Shown here: piece by piece, positions 2,581 to 62,669 of the stretch
Numbering within the stretch: the first letter of the stretch is position 1
Layout: each line of letters starts with the position of its first letter
NCBI RefSeq assembly: GCF_009834535.1
Contig: NC_045696.1
Location: forward strand, 22,322,001 to 22,386,000
Length of the DNA: 64,000 nucleotides
Direction of reading: 5' to 3'
Origin: Camelus ferus
Taxonomy: Eukaryota
Position numbers and translations under genes: made by a program
Notes under the pieces: model-generated
What the model was told of the DNA's origin: nothing
Seen by the model: only the letters and a program-made list of their open reading frames with translations
Database searches by the model: none

Positions 2581-4603
2581 GGCTTTACTTTTTTACTACT
2601 GTTGCTACTGCTCTACCACTGCTGTCACTACTACTAGTGACTTGCTACTAGGTAGACAATAAAAATGCATTAAAGAGCTCCATCAGCAACCATAGTACAC
2701 CACAAAACTCTACAACCCACATAGAGACATATCTAGAGAAAGATCTACCATTGACAGCACTGCATTTTTTAAATACGTAAGCCTCCATGTTGTTTTGCCA
2801 ATCATAGAATCCAATCATGTTACTACTCAAATTGAGTTCATGGTAATGAATTTCTAAAGAGTCAAGAAGCCTCTGAAGAAATACTCAAAGCTGTATCAAC
2901 TAGTTTCTCAGTTGTTTCCTGTGCTGGAAAATTAAACATAGTTGCCTTCCTTAGTTGAAGAGAACAGTCCTTTAAAAAGATGTTCACCGTACCCTAGTGT
3001 AGTTTATGAGAATGACTCTGTATGTATCAAAATATCTTAGGTTGAGATTGTGCCTATCAAAGTGAGGTATCCAGAAAAAAATGAAATCCAATTATCCTGA
3101 TATACCTGAAAAAAAAAAATCCTCAACATGGTTTATGTTTTTCCACTTCTCTGCTTTAGATGTAGCCTAAAACTTTTTTTTTTCATAGCAATGACAATGT
3201 TCTCAATTTCTACTTCATTTCAGCCCTTGATCAAAAAAACGTGGGAATGTATCATGTAAAATGGTTATTAACCCTTCATCTTTTCTGGAAGCTTTACTTT
3301 GGGAATTTCAGCCAAGTCTAAATAACACGTATTAAAAAGGTGGAGGTAATGCAATAGACTCAGATCAAAGATTAGACTTGTTAATAGAATGTTGATCCCA
3401 TGAGTAATGCTCACGCTGTGGAATCCAACAATAGAATTAACATTTCAACCGGAAGCAAAGAGCCATCCCAATAGAAAGGGCCACTCGATCTCGCTTTACA
3501 GCGCTTAAAAAAAATCATCCTTCCGGAGGCTACACGAAGTGTGCCTCTTAGAGTCCCACTTAATGGATTTTGTGTGTGTATGTGGGGGGGAGGGGGGTGC
3601 GGGGGTGTTGTTAATGAATCTTTTGATTCCCTAATGAGACAAGTGCTTACTTCGACAAAACAAAGATCAGCTGGTTAAAACACTCACATGGAAACAGATC
3701 AGTTTTTTTAAGTGTCAAATGAGTATGCCTTCTAAAGGTCCATGCATTTTTTAAATGCCTTTTTTTCCCTCCCGAGAAAGGAGCAGTCGAACATATACTT
3801 GGCGAATCCTTTCAGAATTACCCTGTACAAGTCATCCTATCTTATCACCAAAATGAATCAAATCATTATAAACTCAAAACTGAGGTTACTAATTTAGCCT
3901 CTGCACTTTCCCCAGGGACTGCAGAAATCAATACTGCATTTTTGCAGGAACCTACTTTTTGATTTTCCACGGTCTACTTCATCGAGTTACCGTCTAGTTA
4001 ACAGCTCGTGCCTGGGCTCGCCTCTTCTGTGACCAAGAAGGCTACAGTTCGTTCAGCGCCTCTTTCCTAGAGGTAGCCTGGACGATTTGAGGCGCTGAAA
4101 GGCTCAGTGTCCATTTAATCATGGCGTTTTGTAATTCAGCCTCCCCGCCTGGACTGCTCGACAGCTGAAAACTGGCCGCCCAAGGCTTTGAAATCGGGTA
4201 ACCCTGGACGGAGACGACACGGCGGCTAACAACGGAGAGGGCAAGAGCAAATAAAGCAAAGCCTGCATCCGCGGCAAAGAATAGTCTGGGAGAGACGCCA
4301 GGCGCACCCGGCACGCCGCGCCCACCCACTCGCGCCCGAGGAGCCCTTGCACCGCCGCCCCTTATCCTGAGACTCCGTCCCCCGCTCCAGTGCCCGCTGG
4401 GCACCCTGCGGGACTCCCTTCCCAGCGGCTCCACAACCCGGCCGCGCAAAATCACCCAAGCCCAATTCCGCGCGCACCGCCGCCACTGCCGCAGCGCCCC
4501 CCAAAAGCGCCCGCCCCCTCCCCCACGCTTCATTGTTCCCGGGTGGCCGCAGGCAGCGAGCACCCCCGGGCTGACCCGAGAGACCGAATTGTCCCCCACT
4601 CAC

Positions 4604-4646
4604 CAGCGACTCCGCACAGGAGCACGACGCGCAGCAGAAGCGCCAT
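4604..4646 (-). CDS. CXADR: CXADR coding exon 1 (signal peptide); the gene continues leftwards beyond the window
   Basis: Reverse complement reads GCCAGC ATG GCG CTT CTG CTG CGC GTC GTG CTC CTG TGC GGA GTC GCT G|GTGAGT = MALLLRVVLLCGVA(D). It is a 43-nt phase-1 exon with a perfect donor and matches the mammalian CAR N-terminus (human MALLLCFVLLCGVVD). The adjacent 5'UTR GAGCCGCCTACCTGCAG..GCCCACGGC also resembles CXADR. Confidence 0.95.
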
Positions 4647-4770
4647 GCTGGCGGCCCGGCCGTGGGCGACGACTGCAGGTAGGCGGCTCTCACCGGGGTC
4701 TCAGTCACCCGGCGCCTCGCGCGCTCCGGACTGGTTGCTGGCGGCGGCGGCACCTCGCAGCCCGGTCGCA

Positions 4771-4870
4771 CCCCGCCCTCGCTCGGCAGGTGAAACACGT
4801 CACTTCCGGGAGCGGTGGAGCCCCGCGGCGAGCGCCGTCTCCGCCAGGCGCGTGGGGTTACCATGGCAAC
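4771..4870 (-). promoter_or_regulatory. CXADR: Core promoter motif cluster: GC box, E2-box, overlapping ETS-CRE, RFX X-box
   Basis: CCCCGCCC 4771-4778; CAGGTG 4787-4792; CCGGAAGTGACGT (minus strand) 4797-4809; GTTACCATGGCAAC 4857-4870. Confidence 0.75.
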
Positions 4871-5750
4871 AGGGAGCCCCGCGCCTGCTGCCCCCGGGAC
4901 CCTCCGGAGTGAGGGACTCCCTGCCCGGGGCGCTCGGGCGTTGGGGTGCGCCAGGAAGCCACTCGTCTCAACCCTGAGCAGGGATCCTCACCGGCTCAAA
5001 GCTTTCAGTTAAATCGGGGTTTGTGCACGTGGGGCGGGCCACCCCTCTCCCAGACTACTGGATCTGCCGCCGCGCCCTTGCTGAAAGGCACGGCACTGGA
5101 CAGAATTCGCCCCCCAGACTCCGCACCCCGAAGGGCTGCTGAAGCCATCGGCCACGCGTGCACTGACCCCACCCTCCCCTCGGGAGAGTACGGGTGGGGC
5201 CTCCAGCCACGCCTCCTACCTTTAGAGGTTTGCTGTTGGGGCGGGCTCCCCCACCTAAGGCTCCAGAGGAATTAACCTCGGCAGCGTCCAGCATTTGCGC
5301 CCATCTCTTTGAGTCGATTAGTTTGATGGCGGAGGGTTAGAGAAGCTTTTCCCCATCTCCAGTAATGAGTAACCCCCTAAACTGCAGCTATTGATTCGGG
5401 AAATACCCGGATTGGGTTTTCCCTCTTTATATTTAAAGGTTATTCTAGCCCTGAATTGGCCAACAAGGACCAAAGGTTGAAAAGTGGGACCAAGTAATGA
5501 CGGTTAAAGGCTTGTTGGCGGAGGAGGGGTGGCGGTAGTTGGGGAGCTGGGGAGAGATGTTAACTCTCCCAGAATTTCCCCGTCAGCCGGGCCATGCCGC
5601 TTCCGCCTCCTGGTTTCCTCCATACTTGTTCTTGTGTCATTTTGCTGCTTGTTCTCGGCTGCTCTTTCCAGATAACGTTTATTTATAACTCCTGGAAGAC
5701 TTCGGTGTTCCCAACAGTTCCTTATCAGGAGTGAACTAGAGAAGAGAAGC

Positions 5751-6397: not shown

Positions 6398-6803
6398 TGT
6401 TACCGGGAAAAGGGAAATAAGAATTACCTCGGTTCTTAATCACCCGAAAAAAAAGAATTTTTGATGAGAGACAAAAAAAACGTGATATAAGCAAGATTTT
6501 TATTAGTGAAGTAAAAAAAAAAAAGTGAAAGATAGTACACTCCTGAGAATTGAGAGCAGGCCAATCCAAGAGAGGAAAAAATGGTGCTGTTCCCTCGCTT
6601 TCCCTGTTTTTATATCCTGGTTTCCTGATTGATTGATTGATTGATTGATTGATTAACAGCTCAGGTTTCCTGCTCTCTGGCTGATTGACACCTCAGGTTC
6701 CTTGTGTTCTGGTTAATTGACAGCTCAGGTTCCTTGTGTTCTGGATTGTTCCTTTCCCCATCCTCTCCCCCTGCCCACTGCTCATTATCTAAACTACCTA
6801 ACA
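6398..6803 (-). repeat. 3' LTR of the provirus
   Basis: TGTTAC...TAACA; minus-strand AATAAA at 6499-6504 and TATAAAAA at 6607-6614; adjacent PPT AGAGGGGAGAA (minus strand, 6804-6814). Confidence 0.92.
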
Positions 6804-6989
6804 TTCTCCCCTCTAGTCATAGGACCCCAAATCTTTGGGACATAGAGGGCGTTGACTGCTCTAGCTACTTCCTGCTGATCTGGGACAATGATGAAACTCA
6901 CTGGGGTCCCAGACTAGCTGGCTGTCACTGGGCAGGTGGTGAGCGAAGGGTCAGTGTCCATCAAGGGGCTTGTGTAAAAGCTGTCTTGG

Positions 6990-7130
6990 CTGATTGGTTG
7001 ATTACCTCGTTGTATAGCCATTTAAAGTTTGACTCTAGACAAGAAGAAACACATTTTATAAGAAGGCTGAAAAGGTAGCGGTCAAATATGTATTGCTAAT
7101 CCTAGCCAAGGGGTGAAGAGGATAAACAAG
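6990..7130 (-). pseudogene. ERV env TM C-terminal remnant
   Basis: Manual translation IFDRYLFSLLIKCVSSCLES resembles the class I Env post-TM motif (IFGPCxxNLLVKFVSSRLE). Confidence 0.65.
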
Positions 7131-7133
7131 GGT

Positions 7134-7830
7134 CTTAGAATAACTGATAACCTTCTGTTGAGCTGCCCAGAGTCCTGCCTTAACACAGATTAAAATTGAT
7201 CTCTTTCCCACTTTTGGTTAAGGTCATTATAGTCCCATCCAGGGTCCATTGGGGAACAGCTTTTTCCCCTATGGGGTACTCGTCATTAGATAGATGTAGA
7301 CTGTCTGCATATTTTCTGGCTTCTCTGAGAACCCTTTCCTTTTCTGTCTCTGATAGTGTTTGGCCAAGGAAAATATTAATATCTTCCCAGGTGAGACCAT
7401 TAGCTTGCCAAATTAGTCTTAATTTGTCTCAGCTCTACCAGAGAAAACGGCTTATATATAAACTGTGGACCAAATTTTCCATGTGTTTCTACCAGGGGGC
7501 AGGTCTTAGCTATCAGCGGTAATGGAGGACCTGAAGGCAATGTCTTTCCTGGGTATTAGGGAAACACAGGGTATATGGCAGGGAGAGCAGAAGAGGACGG
7601 ACGTTTAAGGGAGTCCTCCTCTCAAGGAGGTGTTAGAGATAGCAGGTTGCTGATAGTAACCATGGCCAAGGTGGTTATTTTGCATTTCCTTAGGAGACTA
7701 TTGCTGTCCCTTAGCAAATAAAATATCTGGATATATGACATTTTAGACCATTTGCCTGTGTATTGTAGAAGAGATCAAGCTGGAGCAAGGTGGTTGAATT
7801 TATGCTCCTATTTATGGGCCATGCTTTTGG
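7134..7830 (-). pseudogene. ERV gag remnant (MA and CA), frameshifted
   Basis: Manual translation gives NSTTLLQLDLFY/TGKWSKMSYIQIFYLLRD (matrix) and PFSLVELRQIKTNL, LTWEDINIFLGQTLSETEKERVLREARKYAD, AVP/MDPGWDYN, VISYSK (capsid). These are typical of HERV-H/W-like Gag. Confidence 0.85.
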
Positions 7831-8795
7831 CTAAGATATAGCCCAGGGGAGTCCCAGCAGGGATCAACTATTGGTTTTTCATCTGAAGGGCAGGATACCA
7901 GGGGGAAGAGGGGGTGGTCTTCAGAGCTCAGCGTCCTGAGGTGAAGCCCACAGGCTATAGTCTGACATCTCAGTCTTCTGCCTGTAGCCAAGAGTACCCT
8001 GAAGCAATGGACCAAGGAGAGCCTGGTGTCTCAGTGTCATTGGTCTGCAGGAGGAGGATTTGGCATCCCAGCCTCCTCTCTGGATGGTGAGGGTGGAGCT
8101 GGGAGTCTCCACAGTCCAAGGAACTAGTGAGTTTTAACCCTGTGAGTGGTTGGTGAGCTGGGAGCTAGAGAGCTACTCAACTGGGATAGTTGGAGAAAGG
8201 GGGAGCAAAAATGAGTGAGTTCAGGTTAGAGGGTCCACATGGAAGCTCCTGAATGGGGAAGGCAGCAGGAGAGGAGAACTTGAGCTAGAACTCCAGCAGC
8301 TCAGTTTTCTAAGGTAGAGATGTTTTCTTGCCCGAGCAAGTGTCCCCAGAGGGACATGAAGCCAGAAAGGAGTCAGAGACATTGCAGCCCATGATTACTG
8401 TCCATGGTGGTGTTTTCTAGAAAAGGCCACCAGGGACAATGTTACTCAAGCCATGTACGAAAGAGGTGGTCAGATACTTGCTGGCCGGTGAATTAGGCAA
8501 ACAGGATATGGTTATAAGTTCCCAGGGCACCGCAGGTTGAAATAGTGGCAACAAGGGCATGGCCCCAGCCGCATTAGGAAACTGAGAGTTTTCTTTTAGG
8601 TCAAAGAGTAAGTTAATAATAGCCCAGGAGGGAGGCACCCCTGTCGGGACCATAGGACCTTGCGGTGACGAGTGGGAAAGAGAGATTGAAGGAAGCTGGT
8701 TTTTTTTTTTTTTTTTAAAGAAAACTGGATAGCACAGGTCAGAAAGCAGAAACAAGGATCCCCAGCAAAGGCTACAGACCAGTATATAAAGATGT

Positions 8796-9429
8796 TGAGA
8801 CAGGATGGAAGGGGGCAGGGCACAACCACTCAAGGAATGACAGCAAATTTAACACCAAAATGGTGGAAGATTCAACTCCTAGTTAGCCTTGAGGATTAAG
8901 AGGTTTGACTTCTAGTAGACCTTGAGCTTCATTATATGCTCATTGTAACAGGGTGATAAATAACATGCCCGCAGGCGCCATGACAGCCCGAAGGCTAACT
9001 GCAAAAGGCCAAAGAATGGGCGGTGGCCCAATCCCTGGGAATCCCAGCCCCTTCCCCAGGGCAGTTGGAATGGTCCCACCTGTAGGCGTGTGACGCTACT
9101 GAGCCCATATAAAAACTGGCAACACCTCGCCTAGTGGCCTTTTTCACTCCCTTCTCTTTGGAGACAGCCCGCGCTCTGTCTACGGAGTGTGTACCTACTT
9201 TTACTTTAACCTGAGCGCCAATTCCCTCACTTCTTTCCTTGCCTTTCTCTTGCCTTACACTCTATGCAGTATCTCTCTAAATAAATCTGCTTTTACTGAA
9301 TTGTGGCTCGCACTTGAATTCTTTCCTGACTTAAGCCAAAGACCCATACTTGGCGGGGCACGTGCCAGGGCCTCAACTGAGACCTGGGACATGGCCTTCC
9401 TCACGCCCCACAGCCATTTTCCTGCATCA
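8796..9429 (+). mobile_element. Solo ERV1 LTR nested antisense in the provirus leader
   Basis: TGAGAC...CATCA ends; near-TSD ATGT/GTGT; TATAAAAA 9108-9115; AATAAA 9280-9285. Confidence 0.85.
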
Positions 9430-9926
9430 GTGTGAAGTGATAAAGTAATTGGTATACAGGCCTGGTCCGGTATCTTGGGTCAGCTGTCTACCTCAGATGT
9501 TGTCTTATTCTCTTCCTGGTTTGGTACTTTCTCCCTTGTTTGAACATTGTTTTAAGGTGGTCAGTAGTCCTCTCTGTAGGCCAGTCCAGTGTAAAGGCCA
9601 GAAGTTATTAGTTTACTGTGCTTCTAGAGTAAGCCTGGTTATCTCCAGTTGGAGCTCCATGGCAGGCGGGGCTGGCAGGGGTCAGAGCGCGCTGGGGCAG
9701 GCGTGCATGTGGCTGGGCATGGGGGAGGCGGCACATGGCTGCAGTGACTGGCTGGGCACGGGATCCCAGATGGGCCACTCACTGCTTGACTGGTCCAGCA
9801 TTGCTTGGAGCTCCATGCCCTGTATCCTCGCTCCAGCCTCCACAGCCATCCCTAAGAGCTTGTGCTCCACTGGTCCTCGGGGAGGGAGAGGGAAATGAAG
9901 GAGGAAAGATTAGGTTTAAGCATGTG

Positions 9927-9944
9927 ATCCAAGTCATGGCACCA
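9927..9944 (-). promoter_or_regulatory. Primer-binding site, tRNA-His
   Basis: Minus strand TGGTGCCATGACTTGGAT versus the His PBS TGGTGCCGTGACTCGGAT. Both mismatches are CpG-decay type, and the site lies 7 nt inside the 5' LTR. Confidence 0.85.
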
Positions 9945-9951
9945 AAATTAA

Positions 9952-10351
9952 TGTTACTGGGAAAAGGGAAATAAGAATTACCTCAGTTCTTAGTCACCTG
10001 AAAAAAAAAGAATTTTTGAAAGACAAAAAGCGTAATATAAGCAAGATTTTTATTAGTGAAGTTAAAAAAAAATGAAAGATAGTACACTCCCGAGAATTGG
10101 GAGCAGGCCAATCCTAGAGAGGAAAAATGGTGCTGTTCCCTTGGTTTTCCATCCTGGTTTCCTGATTGATTGATTGATTGATTGATTGACGGCTCAAGTT
10201 CCATGCGCTCTGGTTGATTGACAGCTCAGGTTCCTTGTGCTCTGGTTAATTGACAGCTCAGGTTCCTTGTGTTCTGGATTGTTCCTCTCCCCTTCCTCTC
10301 CCCCTGCCCCTCCCCCTGCCCAGTGCTTATTTCTGTCTAAACTACCTAACA
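9952..10351 (-). repeat. 5' LTR of the provirus
   Basis: Direct repeat of 6398-6803 (roughly 90%+ identical by eye), with the same termini and (GATT)n tract. Confidence 0.92.
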
Positions 10352-14963: not shown

Positions 14964-15090
14964 TAAAAAATTTGGTATTGTTTTCTTCTGTCCTGTTATC
15001 TTTGTCCTTGTACCTGGATGGAGGCCCCTTGAAAAAATCCATTTACAGTAATTTTTTTTTCTCACAAGCAAGTTGTTGATATGAATGCAG

Positions 15091-15167
15091 TTTTTTTTTT
15101 TTTTTAATGGAGGTATTGGGCACTGAACCTCACTAAGCATGTGCTTTACCACTGAGCTATACCCTCC
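15091..15167 (-). mobile_element. Camelid Vic-1-type tRNA-derived SINE (internally deleted)
   Basis: Reverse complement GGAGGGTATAGCTCAGTGGTAAAGCACATGCTTAG...TACCTCCATTAAAAA. Confidence 0.85.
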
Positions 15168-15518
15168 ACTCGCCCCCCTCCCCTACCCCCGTTTACTGTA
15201 ATTTTAATGAGATTTTTCTTTGGGAGGAATAGAGGCAAATGCACGTGTATAGTTCTCCATCTTTATTCAAAAATCTTCCCTCAATTCGGGTGAAATGTCC
15301 CCATGCGTAGTGAAATTTTTAAAGTCTAAAGAGAATTAATATCTTTACCCTTCTCTAAATAATACAAGAATCTTAGACTGGTTTAACACCTATCAAATCC
15401 CTCTCCTAATTTATTATAATCCATTGTTTTTACTGTATCCACTTTATGATTATATATTGTCTTTTTTTTTTTTTTTTTTTTTTTTTTTTGTATAGCCGAG
15501 GTTTAATTAGACTTGTCT

Positions 15519-15950
15519 TGTGGAAAGGCAATGCTGCCTGTCATTCCAGTTCTACAAGAACCAAGCTGCCCCTCCCCCTAAGGTGCGCCCTTAGGGAAAT
15601 TCAGGATGGAGAAAAACAGAAAGCACTCTGCACTTTGGATACTAGCCCTATCTGGTTAAGATAGGTGTCTAAGGAATAATTTCAGTGAGCCCAGACTCTT
15701 GCATCTTCCCATATACAGAAAAGCTCTAAAATCATTAACTTGAGACATCAGTTTTTTATGACTGGCAGTAATCTTTTGATGTTTGACTGCGTGGCTTTTT
15801 TTTTTTTTTTTTTTTAAGCTTTTGCTTAAAAACATCTATATATCCTGGCTCCTCCCTTACTGCTTTGGAGCTGTTCCTCAGAGCTACCCAGGCTATAGGT
15901 CTCAGTAAGGTCCACAGACTCTAAGGTTGTACTTTGGTCACTAGTCTACA
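15519..15950 (+). mobile_element. Solo ERV1 LTR, MER41-like (ungulate type), inserted in an old L1
   Basis: TGTGGA...AGTCTACA; GAAATTCAGGATGGAGAAAAAC and GAGCCCAGACTCTTGCATCT blocks; same family as the reverse-oriented copy at 42067-42598. Confidence 0.75.
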
Positions 15951-16590
15951 CATTCTTCACCATTTCTTCTTGCATCTCAAACCACCTCTGGAATAATTTT
16001 CCTTCTTCTGGAAGTATATCCTTTAGTGAGGATCTCTTTAAGGTAAACTTTGTTTCTGTTTGTCCAAAAGTATCTATTTTGCCCTCATTCTTAAAAGAGT
16101 TCTTGGTATCAAATTTGGGACTTATCGGTGCGTTCTGTCAAGTGCTTTCAAAATACTATTTCCTACTCATACTTCCAAATGTCTCATATTTCTCTAAGCA
16201 TATTAGACACACAATATATATTAGGTGTGCAATAATTACATTCTTTGAAATCTCTGTGTCATTTTATTTTTTGTTCATACAGATTCTTGCTTATGTTAGG
16301 CTTCTTTTTTCATGTTTTATGACTATTTTTTTTTACTGTAGGCTCATGTTTGTGGAATTTATCTGTGCGAATTGTTTGAGAGTTTTAAGTGCTTTCCTTG
16401 AGAGAGAATTTGTATTAGCTTCTGCCAGGATATTAGGGGCACCACCAATCCAGGAAAAATTGAAAACAGATTTTGGCAGTAAGTTTATCAGATGACACAG
16501 TTGATGTAAATTTGGCTCAGAAACTGGCATGAGGAAGGGCTTGTAGTTACAAATTTTCAGTGAGGTTCATGCCTCTCATCTCAATAGTCC

Positions 16591-16760
16591 TTTTTTTTTT
16601 TTTTTTGAGTAAAGGTAGATTTAGTCAGAGAGATACATACTCCATAGACAGAGTGCAGCCTGTGTCAGATGGCAGGAGAAATGCAGTGAGGTGTGGGGGC
16701 TCAGTAGATTCACACTCCAAAGACAGAGTGCAGGCTGTCTTACTCAGAAGGGAGAGTGGC
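16591..16760 (-). mobile_element. Poly(A)-tailed L1-mediated retrocopy of an ERV LTR R region
   Basis: Poly(T) 16591-16606; TSD CTCAATAG(T/G)CCTTTT at 16580-16594 and 16761-16775; body aligns to 9137-9298 of the solo LTR. Confidence 0.8.
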
Positions 16761-17029
16761 CTCAATAGGCCTTTTAAATAAAATAACAATCCGGTGCTCT
16801 GTAGGTTAGGTATATGGAGAAATCACACGACGTCTTCCTTTGCTGATAGCCGTCCAGATTTGTTCACTTAGCTGGCTCCATTCAGTTTGTTGAATCACCT
16901 GAAAAACATGATATTTAGTTGCTTTTGTGAGATTCTCTAGTGTCTGAGTAGAATAAGTAAATCTTTGTCGAGGATTTCCTCAGTCATTTTTCTTCAAAAT
17001 TCCTAAGTGAGGCATTTCTAAAGCCACAT

Positions 17030-21807: not shown

Positions 21808-21981
21808 AGGTAAAATTTTTGATAAAGGAGGAGTTTTACCATTGTGCAGATGGGCAAGCTGTCAAGGTAATCTCACTTGTCTCACTTTTATAAATTTAAA
21901 AGTCAGTTAAACATTCTTTATTCAAAATCCCTTGAAAGATTTAAGATTTAAAAATTTTTTGTCATTTAAAAAAGCATTCTT

Positions 21982-22105
21982 GGGAGGAGGGTATAGCTCA
22001 ATGGTTGACTGTGTGCTTAGCATGCACAAGGTCCTGGGTTCAATCCCTGATACCTCCGCTAAAAACAATAAATAAACCTAATTCCCTCCTCCCCACAAAA
22101 AAAAA
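21982..22105 (+). mobile_element. Vic-1-type SINE
   Basis: GGAGGGTATAGCTCAATGG..GGTCCTGGGTTCAATCCC..AAATAAACCTAATT..poly(A). Confidence 0.9.
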
Positions 22106-23028
22106 TTTAAAAAAAAGCTTTTATGTCACTGCTGAGCCTTGTGGTTTCACTTTTATGTAAACTTTACTGCATGTAAAAGTAAACTGTGTTTAAGTTTGGT
22201 TTTGTTTGTTTGTTTTCTATTTCCCTGGTGCTGCTATTGCTAAGCAAGGAAGGACCATTGGGAGAATCACTGAAAGGAGATTAATTTCTGTGTCAATAAG
22301 TCAAACAAACTTCTGATTTTGCAGGAGATGCTGGGAAGGGTTGGGCATGGCAGTCAACCCTTTGGAGAAACTTAACAAAAGTAAGGAAAAACACTGAGAT
22401 ATATTTAATATGTGTTTATTTTAAAAGCATTTAGGTAGCTCCAGTTTATAGCATTTTAGTATTTGTGTCATTGTGATAGAGATTTAGTACACTCTGGCTT
22501 GACCACGTAGAAATGTGTTTGGTGCAAAGATTCGACTCTGTTAACATGATGGGAATTTTCCAGACTGTCCTGTAGATGTGCTAGGTCCTATTTTTTTTTT
22601 TTTTTTTGAGCTCTTTATTTCAATATTCTATGTTTCCTACTTTCTTGATTAAGAAAAGAAATGGATTTCTGGTGAAGAGTCCCGACATATCCCATATGGC
22701 TCTTAACAAATGGCTGTCGGCTTCCTGACATTCTCTTTGTGTAGATGCTCTTTCATGCACTAAAATTGCTTAATGGACAGGAGAAGAATCAAATGGACAA
22801 ACACTGGCAACTCAGATAGAAACTCAGATGACAGCTCAAAATGGATAACTAGGTTTGGTCTGCAGAACCGCAAAAAGCCATCTGCCAAAAGACATGCCTG
22901 CAGATTCCAGGGACTGACTTCTTAGAATGCTACTAAGATTCTGATTAATTTCTTAAGAAGCATGAAAGCCAAGTAATCATAGCAAGAAGGAAGAGTCTTG
23001 ATTCAAGTTAAAAAAACAAATAAACCCA

Positions 23029-23185
23029 GGGGGAGCGTATAGCTCAGTGGTAGAGTGCATGCTTAGCAGGCATGAGGTCATGGGTTCAATCCGGTACCTC
23101 CATTAAAAATAAATAAATAAATAAACCTGATCAGCTTCCCCCCAAACAAACAAACAGCCTCCCCCCACCAAAAAAAAAACCCCAC
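23029..23185 (+). mobile_element. Vic-1-type SINE with 18-bp TSD
   Basis: A/B boxes; perfect TSD AAAAAACAAATAAACCCA at 23011-23028 and 23186-23203. Confidence 0.93.
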
Positions 23186-27110: not shown

Positions 27111-27778
27111 CTTCAGGCATGGCTGAATCCACAGGTTCAAATGAACACATCATGACTCAGCTAGTTCCTTTGACTCTGCTTTTTCTTAGTTCGATTTTAT
27201 TTTAGCTAGGCGCCTTCTATATGTGGCTTTCAGCATTCATAAGTCAGAGGGAAAGAGACACATTCTTGGATTTTTGCAAGGACCCTGCTTGAGTCCATCT
27301 GAAACCTAGGGCATCCTGGAAGAATTTTAAATTATAAGGTATACTCCAATCCAGGAAGACATTTAATTTCTGGATTCTTATTGCTTTCTTTTTGGAAACT
27401 CAATCTTTTTTAAAAATCATATTTATAGTTTACAAAATTCTCACTGGAAAGCAAAACCAGTTTTAACTAACTTCACATATTGACTAGGTGAGAAAACCAA
27501 AGTATCTTTCATTGAGGCAGCATTTTTATGGGATAATAAATTTCTATTTGTGCAATAATAACATATCAAGGATATCTTGTTAATAGAAGAAAGCAAGATG
27601 CAAAACCATGTCTGTCATAAACCACCGTTTGTGTGAAGTACAGTATATGTATGTGTGTATGCATATGATTATTATTTCTGGAAAGATATAGAAAAACACT
27701 GATCATACTTATTGCTTCTGAGGATGGTAGTTGGGTGGCTGGGAGACCATGGGAGAAAAACTAAGTTTTCACTATATA

Positions 27779-27928
27779 GGGGGGAGGGTATAGCTCAAGT
27801 GGTAGAGTGCATGCTTAGCATGTGAGAGGTCCCGGGTTCAATCCCGGGTAACTCCTCCAAGTGGAAATCAATGAAGAAACCTAATTACCTCCCCCTCAGA
27901 AAACAAACAATACAAATTTTCATTGCAT
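27779..27928 (+). mobile_element. Vic-1-type SINE with 22-bp TSD
   Basis: TSD AAAACTAAGT(T/G)TTCACT(A/G)TATA at 27757-27778 and 27929-27950. Confidence 0.92.
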
Positions 27929-34760: not shown

Positions 34761-35008
34761 GTAACTATATTGTAAACTACTCAATCATACTACTATTAAA
34801 ATATTCATGCTTATTGACCTAATACATCTACATTTTAGAGTCTGTTCTGAGGAATAATCAGCCATAGATAAGCAAACAAATTTATGTACGAGGCTGTTTC
34901 TTGAACTTTTATACAAATGAGATTTTAGAAAAAATTAACTGTGTAAAAAGAGGGAAATTGAAAAATGACTTCATACGATGGATGATGAACAGACACAAAA
35001 TGTTTTTT

Positions 35009-35133
35009 GAGGGGAGGGTATAGCTCAGTGGTAAAGCACCTGTTTAGCAAGCATGAGGTCCTGGTTTCAATGCCCAGTACCTCTGTCAAAACAAATAAAT
35101 AAACCTAATTACCTCCCTCACCCCAAAGAAAAG
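35009..35133 (+). mobile_element. Vic-1-type SINE
   Basis: GGGGAGGGTATAGCTCAGTGG..CAGTACCTC..AAATAAACCTAATTACCTCCC. Confidence 0.9.
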
Positions 35134-35734
35134 AAAATTCTTTTTAAAGTTTTAGAAAAATGGTCACATGGGGAATAGATTATTACATATATGAAATAGA
35201 TGCATAAAAGGGAAATGCAAGCCTATAAATACTATGTTTCCTCAATTTAAAACCATTTATTAATTAAAGTAGGAAGTGTTAATTAAGTGTCACATATGTG
35301 TGTTAGGCACTGTTCTGGGTACAGAAGATACAGCAGAAATAGTCACTGTCCTTCTCCAGGAGGACATTTATCCCAGTAGATTATATACACAATAAGAAAC
35401 CAGAAGAAAATGCTTATTTTCTACCACTGTGTATTGGAATACACACTGTCATGATTGTCAATACTCAATTATTATCATAAAATCGATATATGCATATTAC
35501 AAAGAATTTGTGGAATGCAGAAAAGCACAAAAATGAAAGTTAAAAAACATGAGATTTTGTTATTAAGAAATAACACAGTAGTATACCTTACTTAAAACAT
35601 TTTTCAATAAAAAGAAGGAAGAAGAGTGAAAGATAAACTTCTCCACAAATTGGATACTATAAGTCCTATACATAAATACAGTTTAATTCAAATATACAAT
35701 ATAAGAAAAGAAACAAATAAAACTAAAGGAATTA

Positions 35735-36705: not shown

Positions 36706-36912
36706 ATACTAAGAAAAATCAAGGACCTTACCATTCCTACAGTTCCAATATTTTTTGTTATTTACATTATTATTATTATTGTTGTTGTTGTTGTAGTAGT
36801 TTATACACTATGATCTTTAACATTTATTTTCCAGTCTGTAGCAAAATTTCCATAGTAAGTATTATTTATCCATTTTCAGAGTCAATACTCACTGTCAGTT
36901 TTTACTTAAAAA

Positions 36913-37022
36913 TTTTTTTTAATGGAGTTACTGGGTATTAAATCCAGGCCCTCATTGCATGTTAAATAAGCACGTGCTCTACCACTGAGCTATACCCTCT
37001 ACCACTGAGCTATATACCTTCC
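36913..37022 (-). mobile_element. Vic-1-type SINE with a duplicated A-box head
   Basis: CTCTACCACTGAGCTATA occurs twice (36977-36994 and 36997-37014). Confidence 0.85.
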
Positions 37023-41924: not shown

Positions 41925-42690
41925 TTTTTAATTGTGGTGAAGTATAAATAATTAAAAAAATTGCCATTTTAACCATTTTTAAGTGTAAATTTCAGTGGCA
42001 GTAGGTACACTTACACTGTTATGCAGCCATCATCACCATCCATCTCTAGAACTTTTTCATCTTCTGTATCAACTGAAAACAAACAAACAAACAAAAAGCT
42101 TAAACACTTAAAACTTAAAACACATACTTAAAAGTTGAGAGTTATATTATATTTAGGGAACTTACTGAGAACTATAGCCCTGGATACAGCCTCTCAGATA
42201 GCTCCAAAGAAGTTAGGGAGAAGCCAGAATACGTAAGAGTTTTTGCTAAAAAACAAAAACAAAGACAAAAACACATGTAGTTGAACATCAAAAGATTACT
42301 GCTAGTCACAAAGAACAGACTTTGGAGGTTAACAATTTCAGTGCTTTTTGATGAATATGTAGATACAAGAATCTGGGCTCACTGAATTTATTCCTTTGGC
42401 AAACACCTTAACTGTCTAAGGCCAGGAACTGGTTTTTCTCCATCCTGAATTCCCCTCAGGGCACACTGCAGGGGTTGCAGTGGCTGATGACTTGATGGAG
42501 GGCAACACTCTGTTGTTTACTGGAATGGCTGACGATATTTTTTGTTTACTGAAATGGCAGGCAACAGTTTTTTTTTTTTTTTTTTTTTTTGGTCCACATC
42601 CCCAAATGAAACTCTGTACCCATTAAACAATAACTCCTCATTCTCCCCTCTCCCCAGCCTCTGGTAACCACCAGGCAGCTATCTGTGAGA
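41925..42690 (-). mobile_element. L1MB-like 3' end interrupted by an LTR
   Basis: TTAATTGTGG..ACCATTTTTAAGTGT..AACTTTTTCATCT | CCCAAATGAAACTCTGTACCCATTAAACAATAACTCC. Confidence 0.8.
42067..42598 (-). mobile_element. Solo ERV1 LTR, MER41-like (ungulate type)
   Basis: Reverse complement starts TGTGGAC and ends ~TTTCAGTTGATA; homologous to 15519-15950. Confidence 0.8.
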
Positions 42691-43962
42691 GCAGATATTT
42701 TTAAGGAGAAAGAAAATGGGATGGTGCTTCCATAGCTTGTGACAGGCATTGCATTTCCGCCCCAGGTCTGTGCTTTCCCACAAAATTTTAATCTGCCTTC
42801 TCTCCACAGCGACCTCCCAGAGGAATGCCCGGTTTGACCAGAGCACCTGGCTCTCGGGGCTGCCCCATCCCCACCTGCTGCTTCTGAGAAATCAGTCCTA
42901 GCCTTGATATCCAGTGTTAGGCTCTGCTCAGCCTCTGACTGTTCCTTTCAAGCCTTGAATTTCAGGTGCGGGACTTCAGCAGGTTTGACACCAGCCTGCC
43001 AGTCCCAGCTCAGTTTCTACCGCACCAAGAACTTACCGTTCAGAACCCACCTCTGGTTCCTCCAGCTCAAATACTGACCCGGTAAAGGCATTATAGACCG
43101 CGGTGCTTATCTGTAAACTGATGAGGGTGAATTAGGCAACCTCAAAGGTATTTTCAGCTCTAAAAGTAGTTACTGTCTGGTTCAAGACAAACAAATCCTG
43201 ATGTCCTAATGTGATAGGTTAGATAAGGTTCTCCTGTGGAAATTCCCTCCTGGTGTAAGTCATATTTTGACAGAAACAGAAATGCTAAAAACATTATGTT
43301 TGCTTTGAAAGTTCAGCTAATGGTCAGCAAAGCTTCATGGAATTTAGGAGAAAGGATGATCTGTTAGTTCAAAGAATTTCATATCCTGCATATAATCCTG
43401 AAAAAAATTGGTGATCTCCTAGGAGCCTTTGGATGGACTTGGTGTGCTAGCTTTGCATAAAGTTGTTTTGACTTTCACTCTAATACATCCTTAGCCCAGG
43501 TGAAGGCAAGTAGCTTGCTATTTGATACGGAGATTTACATTTCAAGGCTACTCAGTATTAAATCATCTTCTGGTAAAAGAAGAGTAAGAGGGTCATTGTG
43601 TGTATTTTATTATGTGTAAACTCCCAGGAAAACAAGTGGTGAGGCTGAGAGAGCTCACTCAAATTCTAGCAGATAAGAAAGTGGCTTATGTAAAAGCTCT
43701 CTTATTGGGTGAGTTACTCATTTCTTCTGGCCAAGAGAGCCAGCAGGGTCATGTGACTGCTAAGCTTTCTAAGGAAGTGAAAACAAAATGTGGAGAGAAT
43801 AACCATGTTTATTTCCAGTACAGACCCTCTGCTTAAGGTAAAATCACCTCTTAAATCTTTAGCTTTCATTCCTCTGTAACCAGATGGTTACTTTTCAGGA
43901 TCTTTAATAGTTTGGATTAATTAATTAAATTCAGATCAAACTTGATTATACCTCTAGTTCAG

Positions 43963-44094
43963 CTGTTTTTTTGTTTTTGTTTTTTGTGGGGGGAGGGGTA
44001 ATTATTTATCTATTTAATGGAGGTACTGGGGATTCGAACTCAGGACCTTGTGCATGCTAAGTACTTGTTCTACCACTGAGCTATACCCTCCTCC
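43963..44094 (-). mobile_element. Vic-1-type SINE with 12-bp TSD
   Basis: TSD CCTCTAGTTCAG at 43951-43962 and 44095-44106. Confidence 0.92.
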
Positions 44095-44103
44095 CCTCTA
44101 GTT

Positions 44104-44272
44104 CAGTGGTTCTTAACCTGAGCCCATTAGAAGCATCAGGGGAAAAGAAAAATATTGATGCTGTTGCCTTAACCCAGAGAACTGATATAATTGGTTTGGG
44201 GTGGGGCCTGGTCATCAATATTTTTTAATAGTTCCCAGGTGATTCTCCTGGGTTGAAGGTTGAGAACCACTA
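44104..44272. mobile_element. MER5-type hAT MITE
   Basis: TIRs CAGTGGTTCTTAAC / GTTGAGAACCACT. Confidence 0.8.
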
Positions 44273-48000: not shown

Positions 48001-49698
48001 GAATGTTAAGGCGAAAGTCTGGCAAAAGCCATTTTTGAAACTCGGGCCATTATTATGGTATTAGTCTGAACAGTGTGACCCATGAATAAACATGACAGTG
48101 TCAAATTAGCCACTGCAGATGCTTAAGGAAGCATGCCTCCCTAGGAAGATGAGTTAAAAAAAATTCCCCATACAATTACCAGCAAATACGTTTTCTGCTG
48201 GAAATAGTAGGGACAAGTTCAACATCAGTATGAAGTTTAGAAAATCATTTCTGAATATGGTTCTCCCCTTCTTTATCCACTGCCCCTCTCCCCTCTGCCA
48301 TCCCTGGGGCCGAGAGCTGCCCTTTAATTGGAGTAAGAAGCTGTACTGAGTCATATTTGCTATCTTTAATACACAGACATGTGAGAGAGCTGTTTGGTAG
48401 AGGATTTGCTTGCCAGCAAGTGGATTTGTGAAAGTCCAGGCTTCATGCCAGATTCTGGGATGAGGTAGAAGTGGGGACTAGACAGAAAAGCTTGTAGGCT
48501 TTTCAGACTAGAACAGAGAGGCTGCAGATGTAAAACTAGGGTTTAATTTGAGCGGTAATTTAGAGTAGGTGTTGATTTAGGAAGATCTAAAAGATCTAGA
48601 ATTAATGGAAAGGTTAACAACGGGCCTCTTGAAGTGGAAGAATGATGACAGATTATGGAATTCGCTTAGCTCTTAATCATTACGTATTTTAATACCTAGG
48701 TGCTAAAAAGTAGTAGCTGATGGTAAATAGCGGTACATTTTAAATTAGTAGATTTCTTCCCTTCTCTGAATTTCTAACCTTATTTCGTGACCATGAACCT
48801 GACTTTCACCTATAAAGGAACTTCATACTAGGCAGCAAAGCAGAGAGACTAGTGATTTTTCAACTAATGAGTAGGAAAGTACTCATTGAGATTGGGGAAT
48901 TATTATTTGTGTGCTTATTTAAGATATTTATTTGTGTATTTGGTGCCTTGTTCCACAGATAATTTAGGCAGAAATGATAGGTAATTTAGGACAATGCGAC
49001 ACTGATGTGAAACTCGCGCACCCAGCCATCTCCCATATCTGGAAGCCGGGTGAGAAATTAAGAGTAACCCCCCAAATCTCACTGCATAGAAATAGATGTT
49101 ACAAGTTTCATGCATTAAGTCAGTCAGTACTTTTTAGCCATAAAAAAACCACTCAGGCCTTCACTCATTATTTATTTACTTAAATTTTACACATGATTAT
49201 AATAAGCTTGGTTATCTGGGTTCACGTAGCCCACAGGAGACTAGAGCGGCGCACTGCTGCATATTTCCTTGGCATTAACAATTACACAAAGGGCTTTCAC
49301 ATCCATTACTAGCTGCTCGAGGCAGACACAACAGTAACATCAAGAAGTGACCGTTGACTGCCTGACAGCTCCAAGAAGACTGAAGAATTCTAAATAGTCA
49401 GCACATAGACCGCAAGAAAACCCTCGTCTACTGCTGTGATGAGCGGGGAGAAAGGCACACGTCACTCTCCCTGGAGGCATCATCACCACAGTCCAGACTC
49501 AGAGCCCCAGATGAATACAGAGGTCGTCCAGCCAAGCCTCCCAGTCAGCACGTGGTTCACCTCTGTAGTTCTTCTCTCAGGTGGTTAGACTGCCTCTGCT
49601 AAATTCTCTCCAGTTGACAAAGAATTTGTTGATTAATTTTATGTGTCATTGATTGGGTGATGGTGCGGTCAAATATCATTCTGGACGTTTCTGTCAGG

Positions 49699-50082
49699 TT
49701 TTTTTTTTTTTTCACCAACAGCTGCTCACATGTTTTCTTACAAAAGTCGGACAGTGAAAACTTATAATGCTTTAAATTTAACGATCTGCAAAATCCTGTC
49801 TAGCCTGTTACACATTTGTCTATTTTGCATATAAGAATGTACATCAAGCAGGTGAAACTTAAACTTTGCTGTGTATGTAATTGTGTTTGTCACATATATT
49901 ACGTGGTTGCATAGTCACCTGCAAATTTTTCTATAAGCAGACATACACAGACTAGATTTTTTAAAAAGACCGATGTAAAGCTATAACCTTTCTAAGTAAT
50001 GACATGTTTACAATAAATTTAAAAATATCCTCAGAAATAACAGGAAAAATTTAATGCTGAGAGCTACACACACAAAATAATA
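49699..50082 (-). pseudogene. Orphan processed retrocopy (3'UTR-like fragment or 3' transduction)
   Basis: Poly(T) 49699-49712; TSD GTTT(C/A)TGTCAGG at 49687-49698 and 50083-50094; interrupts the MLT2 and does not resemble a repeat I recognise. Confidence 0.75.
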
Positions 50083-50373
50083 GTTTATGTCAGGCAGGTT
50101 TTGGATGAATTAACATTTAAATTGGGGAACTCTGAGTAAAGCAGATTGCCTTCCATAATTTGGGGGTGGGCTTCATCCAATCAGTTGAAGGTCTGGATGG
50201 AACAAAATACTCACCTCCCCTGAGAAAGAGGGAATTTCACAGGAGATGGCTTTTATACTTGAACTATATCATTGGCTCTTCTCTGAGTCTCCAGCCTGCT
50301 GGCCCCACCTTGCAGATTTTGGACTTTCCCAACTCCATATTCATATAAAAAAGTTGTTAAAGTAAATCCCTTT

Positions 50374-50453
50374 GGAGGGTATAGATCAATGGTAGAGCAC
50401 ATGCTTAGCATGCACATGGTCCTGGGTTCAATCCCCAGTAGCTCCTCTGAAAA

Positions 50454-50484
<31 letters not shown>

Positions 50485-60252: not shown

Positions 60253-62360
60253 TAGAAGTGGAACAATAAAAATAAACAGGCGCTGGCTGAGAGCTCCTGG
60301 GAATGTGTGTGTATACACTTTTAGACAGAAGACTTGAAACCAAGCCTGTACACAGACTACATGGACAGTCAGATGATTTTTCTTTCTATTTTCCTATGTA
60401 TTTTATAAACTAAATCAAATCAGTGTTTGCAGGTACTCTTAAGTTTAAACCCAAGTAAGATACCATTTAAGGTATCCCTCAATGAGCCTATTGAAAGACA
60501 GAATAAATGCTGCTGGGCATATGGGGACTGAGAAAGAGCACTTGGGTCAGATAGGCCAGTTCTCCAGCCACATAATTGAATGTCTTAAGTGTTAACATAT
60601 CTTTTTACCAACAAAGAGATTAGGGGGTAGCCTGGACAGAAAAATCACTCAAAACTTAAATGTAAGCTACAGAGAGAGGACGGAATCTCACCAGTGAAAT
60701 ATCTTAGCGGCGTCTGGGTCCTTCGAGGTACTTTTAGTGTATGTACAGTAGAATTTATGCTATAAAAGAACATGACTTGCCGTAAGTGTCCGTTCTCTTA
60801 TGTGTGCAAACTTGTGCAGATGATGATGGAATGAAGGTGTGTTTGCTCTCTTTGTTTTCCTTTGAATCAGACTGTTTTTAGTGACATTAACCCTAACTTG
60901 CTCATGAACCTCACCCACTTCCCTGATTTGCTAGTAAATGATTGGGCTAAAAACTTATTATAAAAAAAAGTCTAAAGAATCTGGTTAATGAACTACTTGA
61001 GTTGGCCCAGCAGATCAAGTAATTTGCCATAGTGACTGGTTACTAGGTTGAGTAGGATTTCTAGAGAGGGAGGTATTGGGGAGGCTGGATGGAGCATGAT
61101 AAATTCCTTAATTTGTGCCTTTTACTCTCAGTGAGAAAAATGGTGGTTATTCAAAAGCGTCTGAACATTTTAATTTTTTTCTGCAAGTTTTATATTGCTT
61201 ATTTATGTATGCCACACTTCCTAGAGAGGAAGGAAAGGATAGAACTGGGTGATAAGCTAGACAATGGAAGAGAGTTAGTGGGCCATAGTGTCTTCCTTTT
61301 GTGTTTCCAGCATCTGCCTACCACTAGGGAAATCACAGGACGTGGCATATAAGTAGGGCAGAGGATTCGCCACTCAGCACTTCAATCAGCAAGTCACATT
61401 ACTTGGCATCACTGTGGCAGCTGTAAGGAAACTCCAGAGGATTTTCTGGAGTAAGATGAGCTGTACATGGTGCCTCCCAGCTGGAAGCAAGCTATTTTGT
61501 CCACATTATTTATAAGATGCTCCCAGGCCATCCTAGTTTTCCTAATGACGCTTGCTGTCTACAACTAGCTGAGCTTATTTCAATATGATTTGTCAAAGGT
61601 TAACTGAGAGAAGTCACCAGGAACTAAGAAAACAGATGTAAAATGAAAGAGGGAAAACAAAATCACTTATTTTGAATGGGTACACTTGGTGGCCTAACCA
61701 GGGATGCAAAACGGCTCCAGAATGGAATGAAAAGGATAAAAATAGGAACACAGTTGGGCAGAGCACAGAAAGCCATGAGCAGTTAAAACAGACTGATGCA
61801 AATGTGGCTCTTGAGCACATTATATTTTTAAAAAGAGTGATAAACATATTGAGTATCGTTTATTCTGAGGACCTTTCCCCAAAGGACAGAATTCTGCTTT
61901 TCAAGGCATGGGCTCTCTGCCTTTAAGGCCCGTGCCAGTCTTCTTCACACAGGGTCAGAGGAAGGATGCATTGAAAGTCAGTAGAGCTGTAATTCCTCCA
62001 CAGCAGTGGTAAAGTTAGATCCTGCTGACTGGAGCAGCTCACTCCTGAGGACGGTGATCTTCTCATAAAACAGCTGGCATTGCCTGAAAGGGAGGTATTG
62101 TTGGTAGGTAAGCCAGCTCCTAGGGGCTGGGACACGGCCAGCATCTCATATAGCAAACATGCTGCTGGTTCACTTCTGTTTGTTTTCCCAGATGAAAAGT
62201 GATTGCAACACATTTCAGGGCCAACGCAAAAACTTTGCCTTTGTAATGTATTAACTTGCTCTCCATAGTGAGATGTTCTAAATCACTAAACTAGAAAACA
62301 ATATCTAACTTAAGAAAACAAAAAGAAACCTAGTTAAAAGGTCAATGGGCGAGGGGGGTA

Positions 62361-62500
62361 GGGGGTAGGTATAGCTCAGAGGTAGAGTGCATACTTACTA
62401 TGCATGAGGTCTTGGGTTCAAGCCCCAGTACGTCCATTAAAAAAAACGAATGAGTAAATAAACCTAATTACCGCCCCCCCAAACCCCAAAAAACAAAAAA
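62361..62500 (+). mobile_element. Vic-1-type SINE
   Basis: GGTATAGCTCAGAGGTAGAGTGC..GGGTTCAAGCCCCAGTAC..AAATAAACCTAATTACC. Confidence 0.9.
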
Positions 62501-62669
62501 TGCTCAATTGGCCAGGAAGTTACTTGTATATTACTTTTGTAAAATGATCATCAGTTTGGGTTTTTTTTTTTTTTTTTCCAGCAGGGGGAAAGACTTGGGG
62601 TGTTGCCAAAGAAGCAAAAAATCCATACTTCAGTAAATGTTTTCTTTACTTCCTTTCACCAGGCAGTTC

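Follow-up and report, generated by a model that had tools for sequence, protein, structure and literature searches.

The closest described counterparts of the element reported here are the TINEs of tarsier. These are sequences derived from long terminal repeats (LTRs) that start from the LTR TATA box, end at the LTR poly(A) signal and were mobilised by L1; TINE1/2 comprise 29,041 copies and TINE3 1,668, together ~30,700, and the copies match their consensus at 88–89% (PMC5059674). Their authors term them retropseudogenes or short retrosequences (PMC5059674), and a reviewer comment explains TINE1 by polyadenylation at a solitary LTR and states that it is found in other primates too (PMC3183009). 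In the literature that we searched, TINE-type elements tied to L1 and LTRs were found only in the tarsier paper (PMC5059674). Further searches of that literature, with passages from two camelid repeat surveys (PMC8605555 and PMC6675863), found no TINE-like family in camelids; such a family may already be catalogued. Transcripts that start and end within one solo LTR are on record for human HERV-K, where they make up 29 of 194 reads (PMC13238051).

We analysed a stretch of 64,000 nucleotides, hereafter the window, in which a short element at 16580–16775 on the minus strand invites comparison with these systems. As in TINEs, its body is LTR-derived, its end lies at the position of the LTR poly(A) signal and it bears the marks of L1 insertion. 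TINE sources are LTR77_TS and a MER83B-like LTR (PMC5059674), whereas the present element, compared by description, stems from another LTR family in a non-primate host. The element works like a TINE and is not classed as a TINE member, because source LTR and host differ and no second copy spanning the body was seen among the pieces examined. With the processed pseudogenes of HERV-W it shares an ERV RNA as putative template for L1, a tail after R, an endonuclease-type site (TT/AAAA in HERV-W), a target-site duplication (TSD; 5–15 bp in HERV-W) and the lack of a 3' U5; those pseudogenes copy proviral mRNA (R-U5, internal region, U3-R), whereas the element consists of R only (PMC5016936). Like tRNA-derived SINEs the element is short, has an A-rich tail and would depend on L1; SINEs of that type carry an internal Pol III promoter and their copies can become sources, whereas the element is without one. 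SVA combines Alu-like and VNTR parts with a SINE-R part that derives from HERV-K10, whereas the element is LTR sequence only. The two have in common an ERV-derived 3' end with a poly(A) signal and movement by L1 (PMC2912911), which for our element is a proposal.

Anatomy of the element

Read along the minus strand, the element opens with one copy of a 15-bp TSD (16775–16761), continues with a body of 154 nt (16760–16607) and an uninterrupted tail of 16 A (16606–16591), and closes with the second TSD copy (16594–16580), the last 4 nt of the tail being common to tail and TSD. The two TSD copies are identical at 14 of 15 positions. On the plus strand the right copy (16761–16775) is followed by AAAT, which places its end at a TTTT/AA target site of the endonuclease type. 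The preliminary description had likewise read a minus-strand body of ~155 nt with poly(A) and a 15-bp TSD ending in TTTT/AA, and had left the single mismatch unmentioned. The body is collinear with the R region of an ERV-type LTR. It holds two copies of an LTR motif of ~35 nt, 75 nt apart: unit A (16706–16738) and unit B (16631–16663), 29/33 alike; the solo LTR of the window has one intact copy. A hexamer ACTAAA (16620–16625) sits at the LTR poly(A)-signal position, 13 nt before the tail. Features that may bear on the age of the insertion are an unbroken tail, a single change in the TSD and, among the relatives listed in public contigs, differences at 9 of 82–84 places in the closest long ones.

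TSD, A tail and TTTT/AA site occur together at this element, a combination that argues for L1. TSDs of L1 and of L1-mobilised copies peak at 14–16 bp (PMC2912911). Could the same picture have arisen without retroposition? In that case deletions would have left a decayed piece of an LTR, slippage would have lengthened its A run, and the flanking repeat would be fortuitous. A/T runs of at least 12 nt are indeed common enough in the window (n = 16), and the 100 nt beyond the tail bear a weak likeness to the U5 end (score 32.5, a value that 11 of 2949 random segments attain). We judged the latter to be chance, since the first 72 nt of U5 are skipped and the longer flank scores at the null level. 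Against the decayed fragment, the 14/15 repeat exactly bounds body plus tail, and up to 3000 random draws over a grid of the same size equalled such a match twice. When the A/T runs of at least 11 nt in the window were scanned for flanking repeats of at least 12 nt, two cases emerged, and only the present element had one of 15 nt. Moreover, coincidence would have to account for the endonuclease-type site as well as for both R boundaries. We regard this as the least probable of the explanations considered, with hardly any weight.

The element lacks what would make it a SINE. Allowing one mismatch to the box patterns, no Pol III A or B box was matched in it, and none of the seven Rfam hits in the window falls within it, so that a small-RNA head was not detected either. 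With no Pol III boxes and no promoter of its own the element is a retropseudogene rather than a SINE, and the earlier wording 'SINE-like' was too strong. A solo LTR, such as that at 8796–9429, runs through U3, R and U5 between TG..CA ends and is flanked by a short TSD; the element has R without U3, U5 or TG..CA, and its TSD measures 15 bp. The predicted RNA fold of the body is unremarkable (z = -0.15), and a search for translated relatives with a stop-free frame that crosses the element gave no match.

Relation to a solo LTR in the window

A related solo LTR at 8796–9429 on the plus strand served as a ruler. It has TG..CA ends, 4-bp flanks (ATGT/GTGT), a TATAAAA at 9108 and an AATAAA at 9280. 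Local alignment of the body to this LTR scores 113, whereas 200 shuffles reach at most 48.5 and 577 random window segments at most 56; the pairing contains 110 matches in 133 paired columns (83%) and 50 gap columns. CpG dinucleotides number 0 in the body versus 4 in the R region of the solo LTR. Because of this identity, the number of gap columns and the CpG difference, we take the solo LTR, judging by its sequence, to be a same-family relative of the element and not its source.

Both ends of the body fall at meaningful places on the ruler. The first base corresponds to 9137 in a gapped and to 9141 in an ungapped alignment, that is 29–33 nt past the first T of TATAAAA, a position read off the relative and not off the source. 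A spacing of this order is usual for Pol II starts. The putative cap site thus comes from an LTR that is 83% alike and carries an ambiguity of 4 nt, which counts against the proposed origin, as does the poly(A) hexamer, which in the element is the variant ACTAAA versus AATAAA in the solo LTR. The tail starts 13 nt past the aligned hexamer. The 400-nt flanks of the element score 38 and 41 against the solo LTR (null mean 36, sd 6.6), and therefore no U3 or U5 lies beside the body. As to both ends and the absent LTR parts, our measurements bear out the preliminary description, which had aligned the body to the same LTR, placed its 5' end at ~9137, ~29 nt past the TATA box, and its tail ~13 nt after the position of AATAAA, and had noted neither U3, U5 nor TG..CA. 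Mean R length is 70 bp in gamma-type ERVs and 150 bp in lentiviruses (PMC3601003), so that the R of the element's LTR is long for a gamma-type ERV.

In another layout, the body would comprise U3 and R of an LTR that has lost its TATA box; unit A would then lie on the promoter side, and the element would be a truncated piece made up of U3, R and tail. Body positions 44–65 do match the stretch before the TATA box of the solo LTR (19/22). This layout, however, reaches a score of 44.5 versus 108.5 for the R-collinear alignment and leaves the first 43 nt without a partner, and relatives match the linker gap-free where the TATA box would have to sit. In addition, related contigs show in part an arrangement in which an intact TATA box is followed by unit A, the linker and unit B. 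We consider the U3-plus-R layout very improbable.

Locus and relatives in public sequencing runs

Of the sampled words, a share of 0.93–0.99 is present in 14 of the 24 listed public runs, these 14 coming from 6 studies, versus ~0.79 expected for an empty allele. The samples concerned thus carry the insertion, which is real. Runs X20–X24, with a share of 0.20 or less, do not count as evidence. We considered whether it is fixed in the species and make no such claim: runs are ranked by word share, and heterozygotes look alike. Contigs of 4 of the 24 runs were then compared with 16380–16980 at 80% likeness. The comparison skips 16582–16615, so that the A tail versus U5 of other copies is out of its view; contigs break in repeats, and indels split the matching pieces. 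In both DNA runs one contig covers 16631–16980 with no differences and a depth of 10–12, equal to that of the flank, so that the exact sequence behaves as single-copy. In the contigs of the four runs no listed joint skips the element, as one from an empty site would.

A different picture is obtained for its relatives. Summed depth amounts to ~2,600–2,700x the flank over unit B, ~570–630x over unit A and ~55x over the linker, values that are not copy numbers and that, being many times the flank, point to a large LTR family. We examined 32 of 1911 matching pieces, mainly the longest; 7 come from the element locus and 25 from elsewhere. The foreign pieces among those listed measure 61–90 nt, carry 7–16 differences and lie entirely inside 16616–16705, and the source LTR was not found among them. 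A second piece that spans the body at 80% likeness does not occur among the 32 listed of 1911 in the four runs. A young homogeneous burst of the element variant is unlikely. An older or mixed family may exist; one of TINE age would, by our reckoning, have pairwise identities near the 80% cut-off. Several related contigs extend without a gap from unit B through the linker as far as 16698–16705, which means that two-unit R regions exist in the LTR family. Two motif patterns retrieved 0 stretches from viral, metagenome and prokaryote contigs.

What happens at the 5' end of the body in other copies? In the 24 of 240 rows examined, loose ends gather at 16756 in 19 contigs of run X2 (agreement 0.52) and at 16760 in 4 contigs of run X16 (agreement 0.56); rows of LTR subfamilies show similar agreement. 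About 40–90 flank-equivalents of depth reach the first bases of the body. These mixed loose ends and the depth at the body start could reflect other copies with unrelated flanks or a mixture of LTR subfamilies. One contig of run X7 joins motif-end sequence ahead of the first bases of the body (16760 to 16630), and the body start is therefore an internal unit boundary in some relatives. Run X19, an RNA run from a reproductive-system sample, contains motif relatives and no listed piece of the element locus across the element; run X16, which is RNA only by guess, contains the element locus with its flanks. Contigs from these two runs carry no start, end or strand information and have no bearing on expression.

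Proposed origin

Based on the anatomy and on the end positions relative to the solo LTR, we propose that the element descends from an RNA whose start and end both lay within one LTR and which was copied by L1. This is the best reading of the element, and we hold it with considerable confidence. Pol II, directed by the TATA box of an LTR of the same ERV family at another genomic site (in the simplest case a solo LTR), would have made an RNA that was polyadenylated at the LTR's own signal ~150 nt downstream. The ORF2 protein of L1 would then have bound the A tail and nicked a TTTT/AA site, and reverse transcription through to the 5' end would have left the 15-bp duplication. The preliminary description had put forward the same interpretation, a short Pol II RNA of one LTR copied by target-primed reverse transcription, and it fits every feature tested. 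Its further suggestion of a distinct retroposon class, made for the case of multiple copies, does not hold: the mechanism was already described for tarsier TINEs (PMC5059674). The class of mechanism is known and no new one is needed. As it has no U3, hence no promoter, and no Pol III boxes, the element should be a dead end and not itself a source; siblings, if any, would derive from source LTRs.

The proposal comes in two forms. That the insertion was a one-off or one of a few copies has roughly an even chance. We put forward only tentatively, as the less probable form, that the element belongs to a so far unrecognised TINE-like family of its lineage, probably camelids. Such a family would comprise tens to hundreds or more R-only, tailed, L1-inserted copies, derived from one or several LTRs and annotated as LTR fragments.

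The most serious competitor is truncation: the element would be a processed pseudogene, shortened at its 5' end, of a longer RNA ending in the R of this LTR family. That RNA would be either an ERV mRNA as in HERV-W or a host transcript that used the LTR poly(A) signal, and L1 would have stopped near the R start by chance. This reading predicts an identical tail, TSD and target site. Precedents exist: of 213 HERV-W elements 135 are processed pseudogenes of this kind, and pieces of 0–0.5 kb abound in an earlier data set (PMC5016936), while solo LTRs act mostly as poly(A) donors (100 of 194 reads; PMC13238051). Motif sequence does lie ahead of the body start in some relatives, and a source LTR with an extra upstream unit would make the element a truncated copy. 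Two features oppose truncation. The element contains zero U3 bases, and its 5' end lies 29–33 nt past the TATA box; under an assumed exponential length model the chance that a truncated long RNA ends at most 5 nt from a given site is ~0.5–2%, or 2–3% among LTR-only pieces, odds that are post hoc since the element was originally picked for its R-start fit. On balance we find truncation unlikely and favour an RNA that was short from the outset.

What would such an RNA imply? As a single copy, the element would be a clean fossil of a short RNA, confined to one LTR, that existed in the germ line or early embryo, and it would delimit the R region of an LTR family independently of RNA data. If there is such a TINE-like family, its implications are broader. 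It would represent a second mammalian lineage with TINE-like elements, of independent origin outside primates, and would indicate that long-R LTRs repeatedly seed retroposon families in mammals. Repeat annotation would have to be corrected, since counts of LTR fragments would include L1 insertions, and the copies would supply presence/absence markers.

Other features of the window

The flanks of the element (15930–16580 and 16776–17000) resemble what we take to be an old L1-type repeat in antisense orientation. Of 51 stop-free stretches in the surroundings of the element, 25 were searched against Pfam; this returned two sub-threshold hits and did not confirm the L1 likeness. A few related contigs match 16401–16442 in the flank.

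An LTR retroelement occupies 6398–10351 on the minus strand, with LTRs at 10351–9952 and 6803–6398 that are 87% alike and the same 4-bp repeat, GTAG, at either end. A stretch resembling a primer site follows the first LTR, and a purine tract precedes the second. The solo LTR at 8796–9429 lies inside this retroelement in the opposite orientation and was therefore inserted later. Two copies of a further repeat, presumably another LTR-like kind, are found in opposite orientation at 15575–15913 and 42157–42474; they are 71% alike, and the former carries a 20-nt T run where the latter has a short T-rich stretch.

Nine tRNA-headed SINE copies with A-rich tails are scattered over the window (15080–15185, 21970–22130, 23015–23170, 27765–27925, 35000–35150, 36890–37010, 43950–44105, 50360–50480 and 62350–62520), seven of which score as tRNA in Rfam. 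In our estimation they resemble the camelid Vic-1 SINE, and their presence makes a primate host unlikely. At 49687–50094 on the minus strand, a 14-nt A run is accompanied by a 12-nt flanking repeat with one mismatch, its copies 384 nt apart, and by no endonuclease-type site; the repeat may be due to chance. Finally, the GC-rich stretch at ~4040–5000, which contains several overlapping stop-free frames, is probably a CpG-island promoter.
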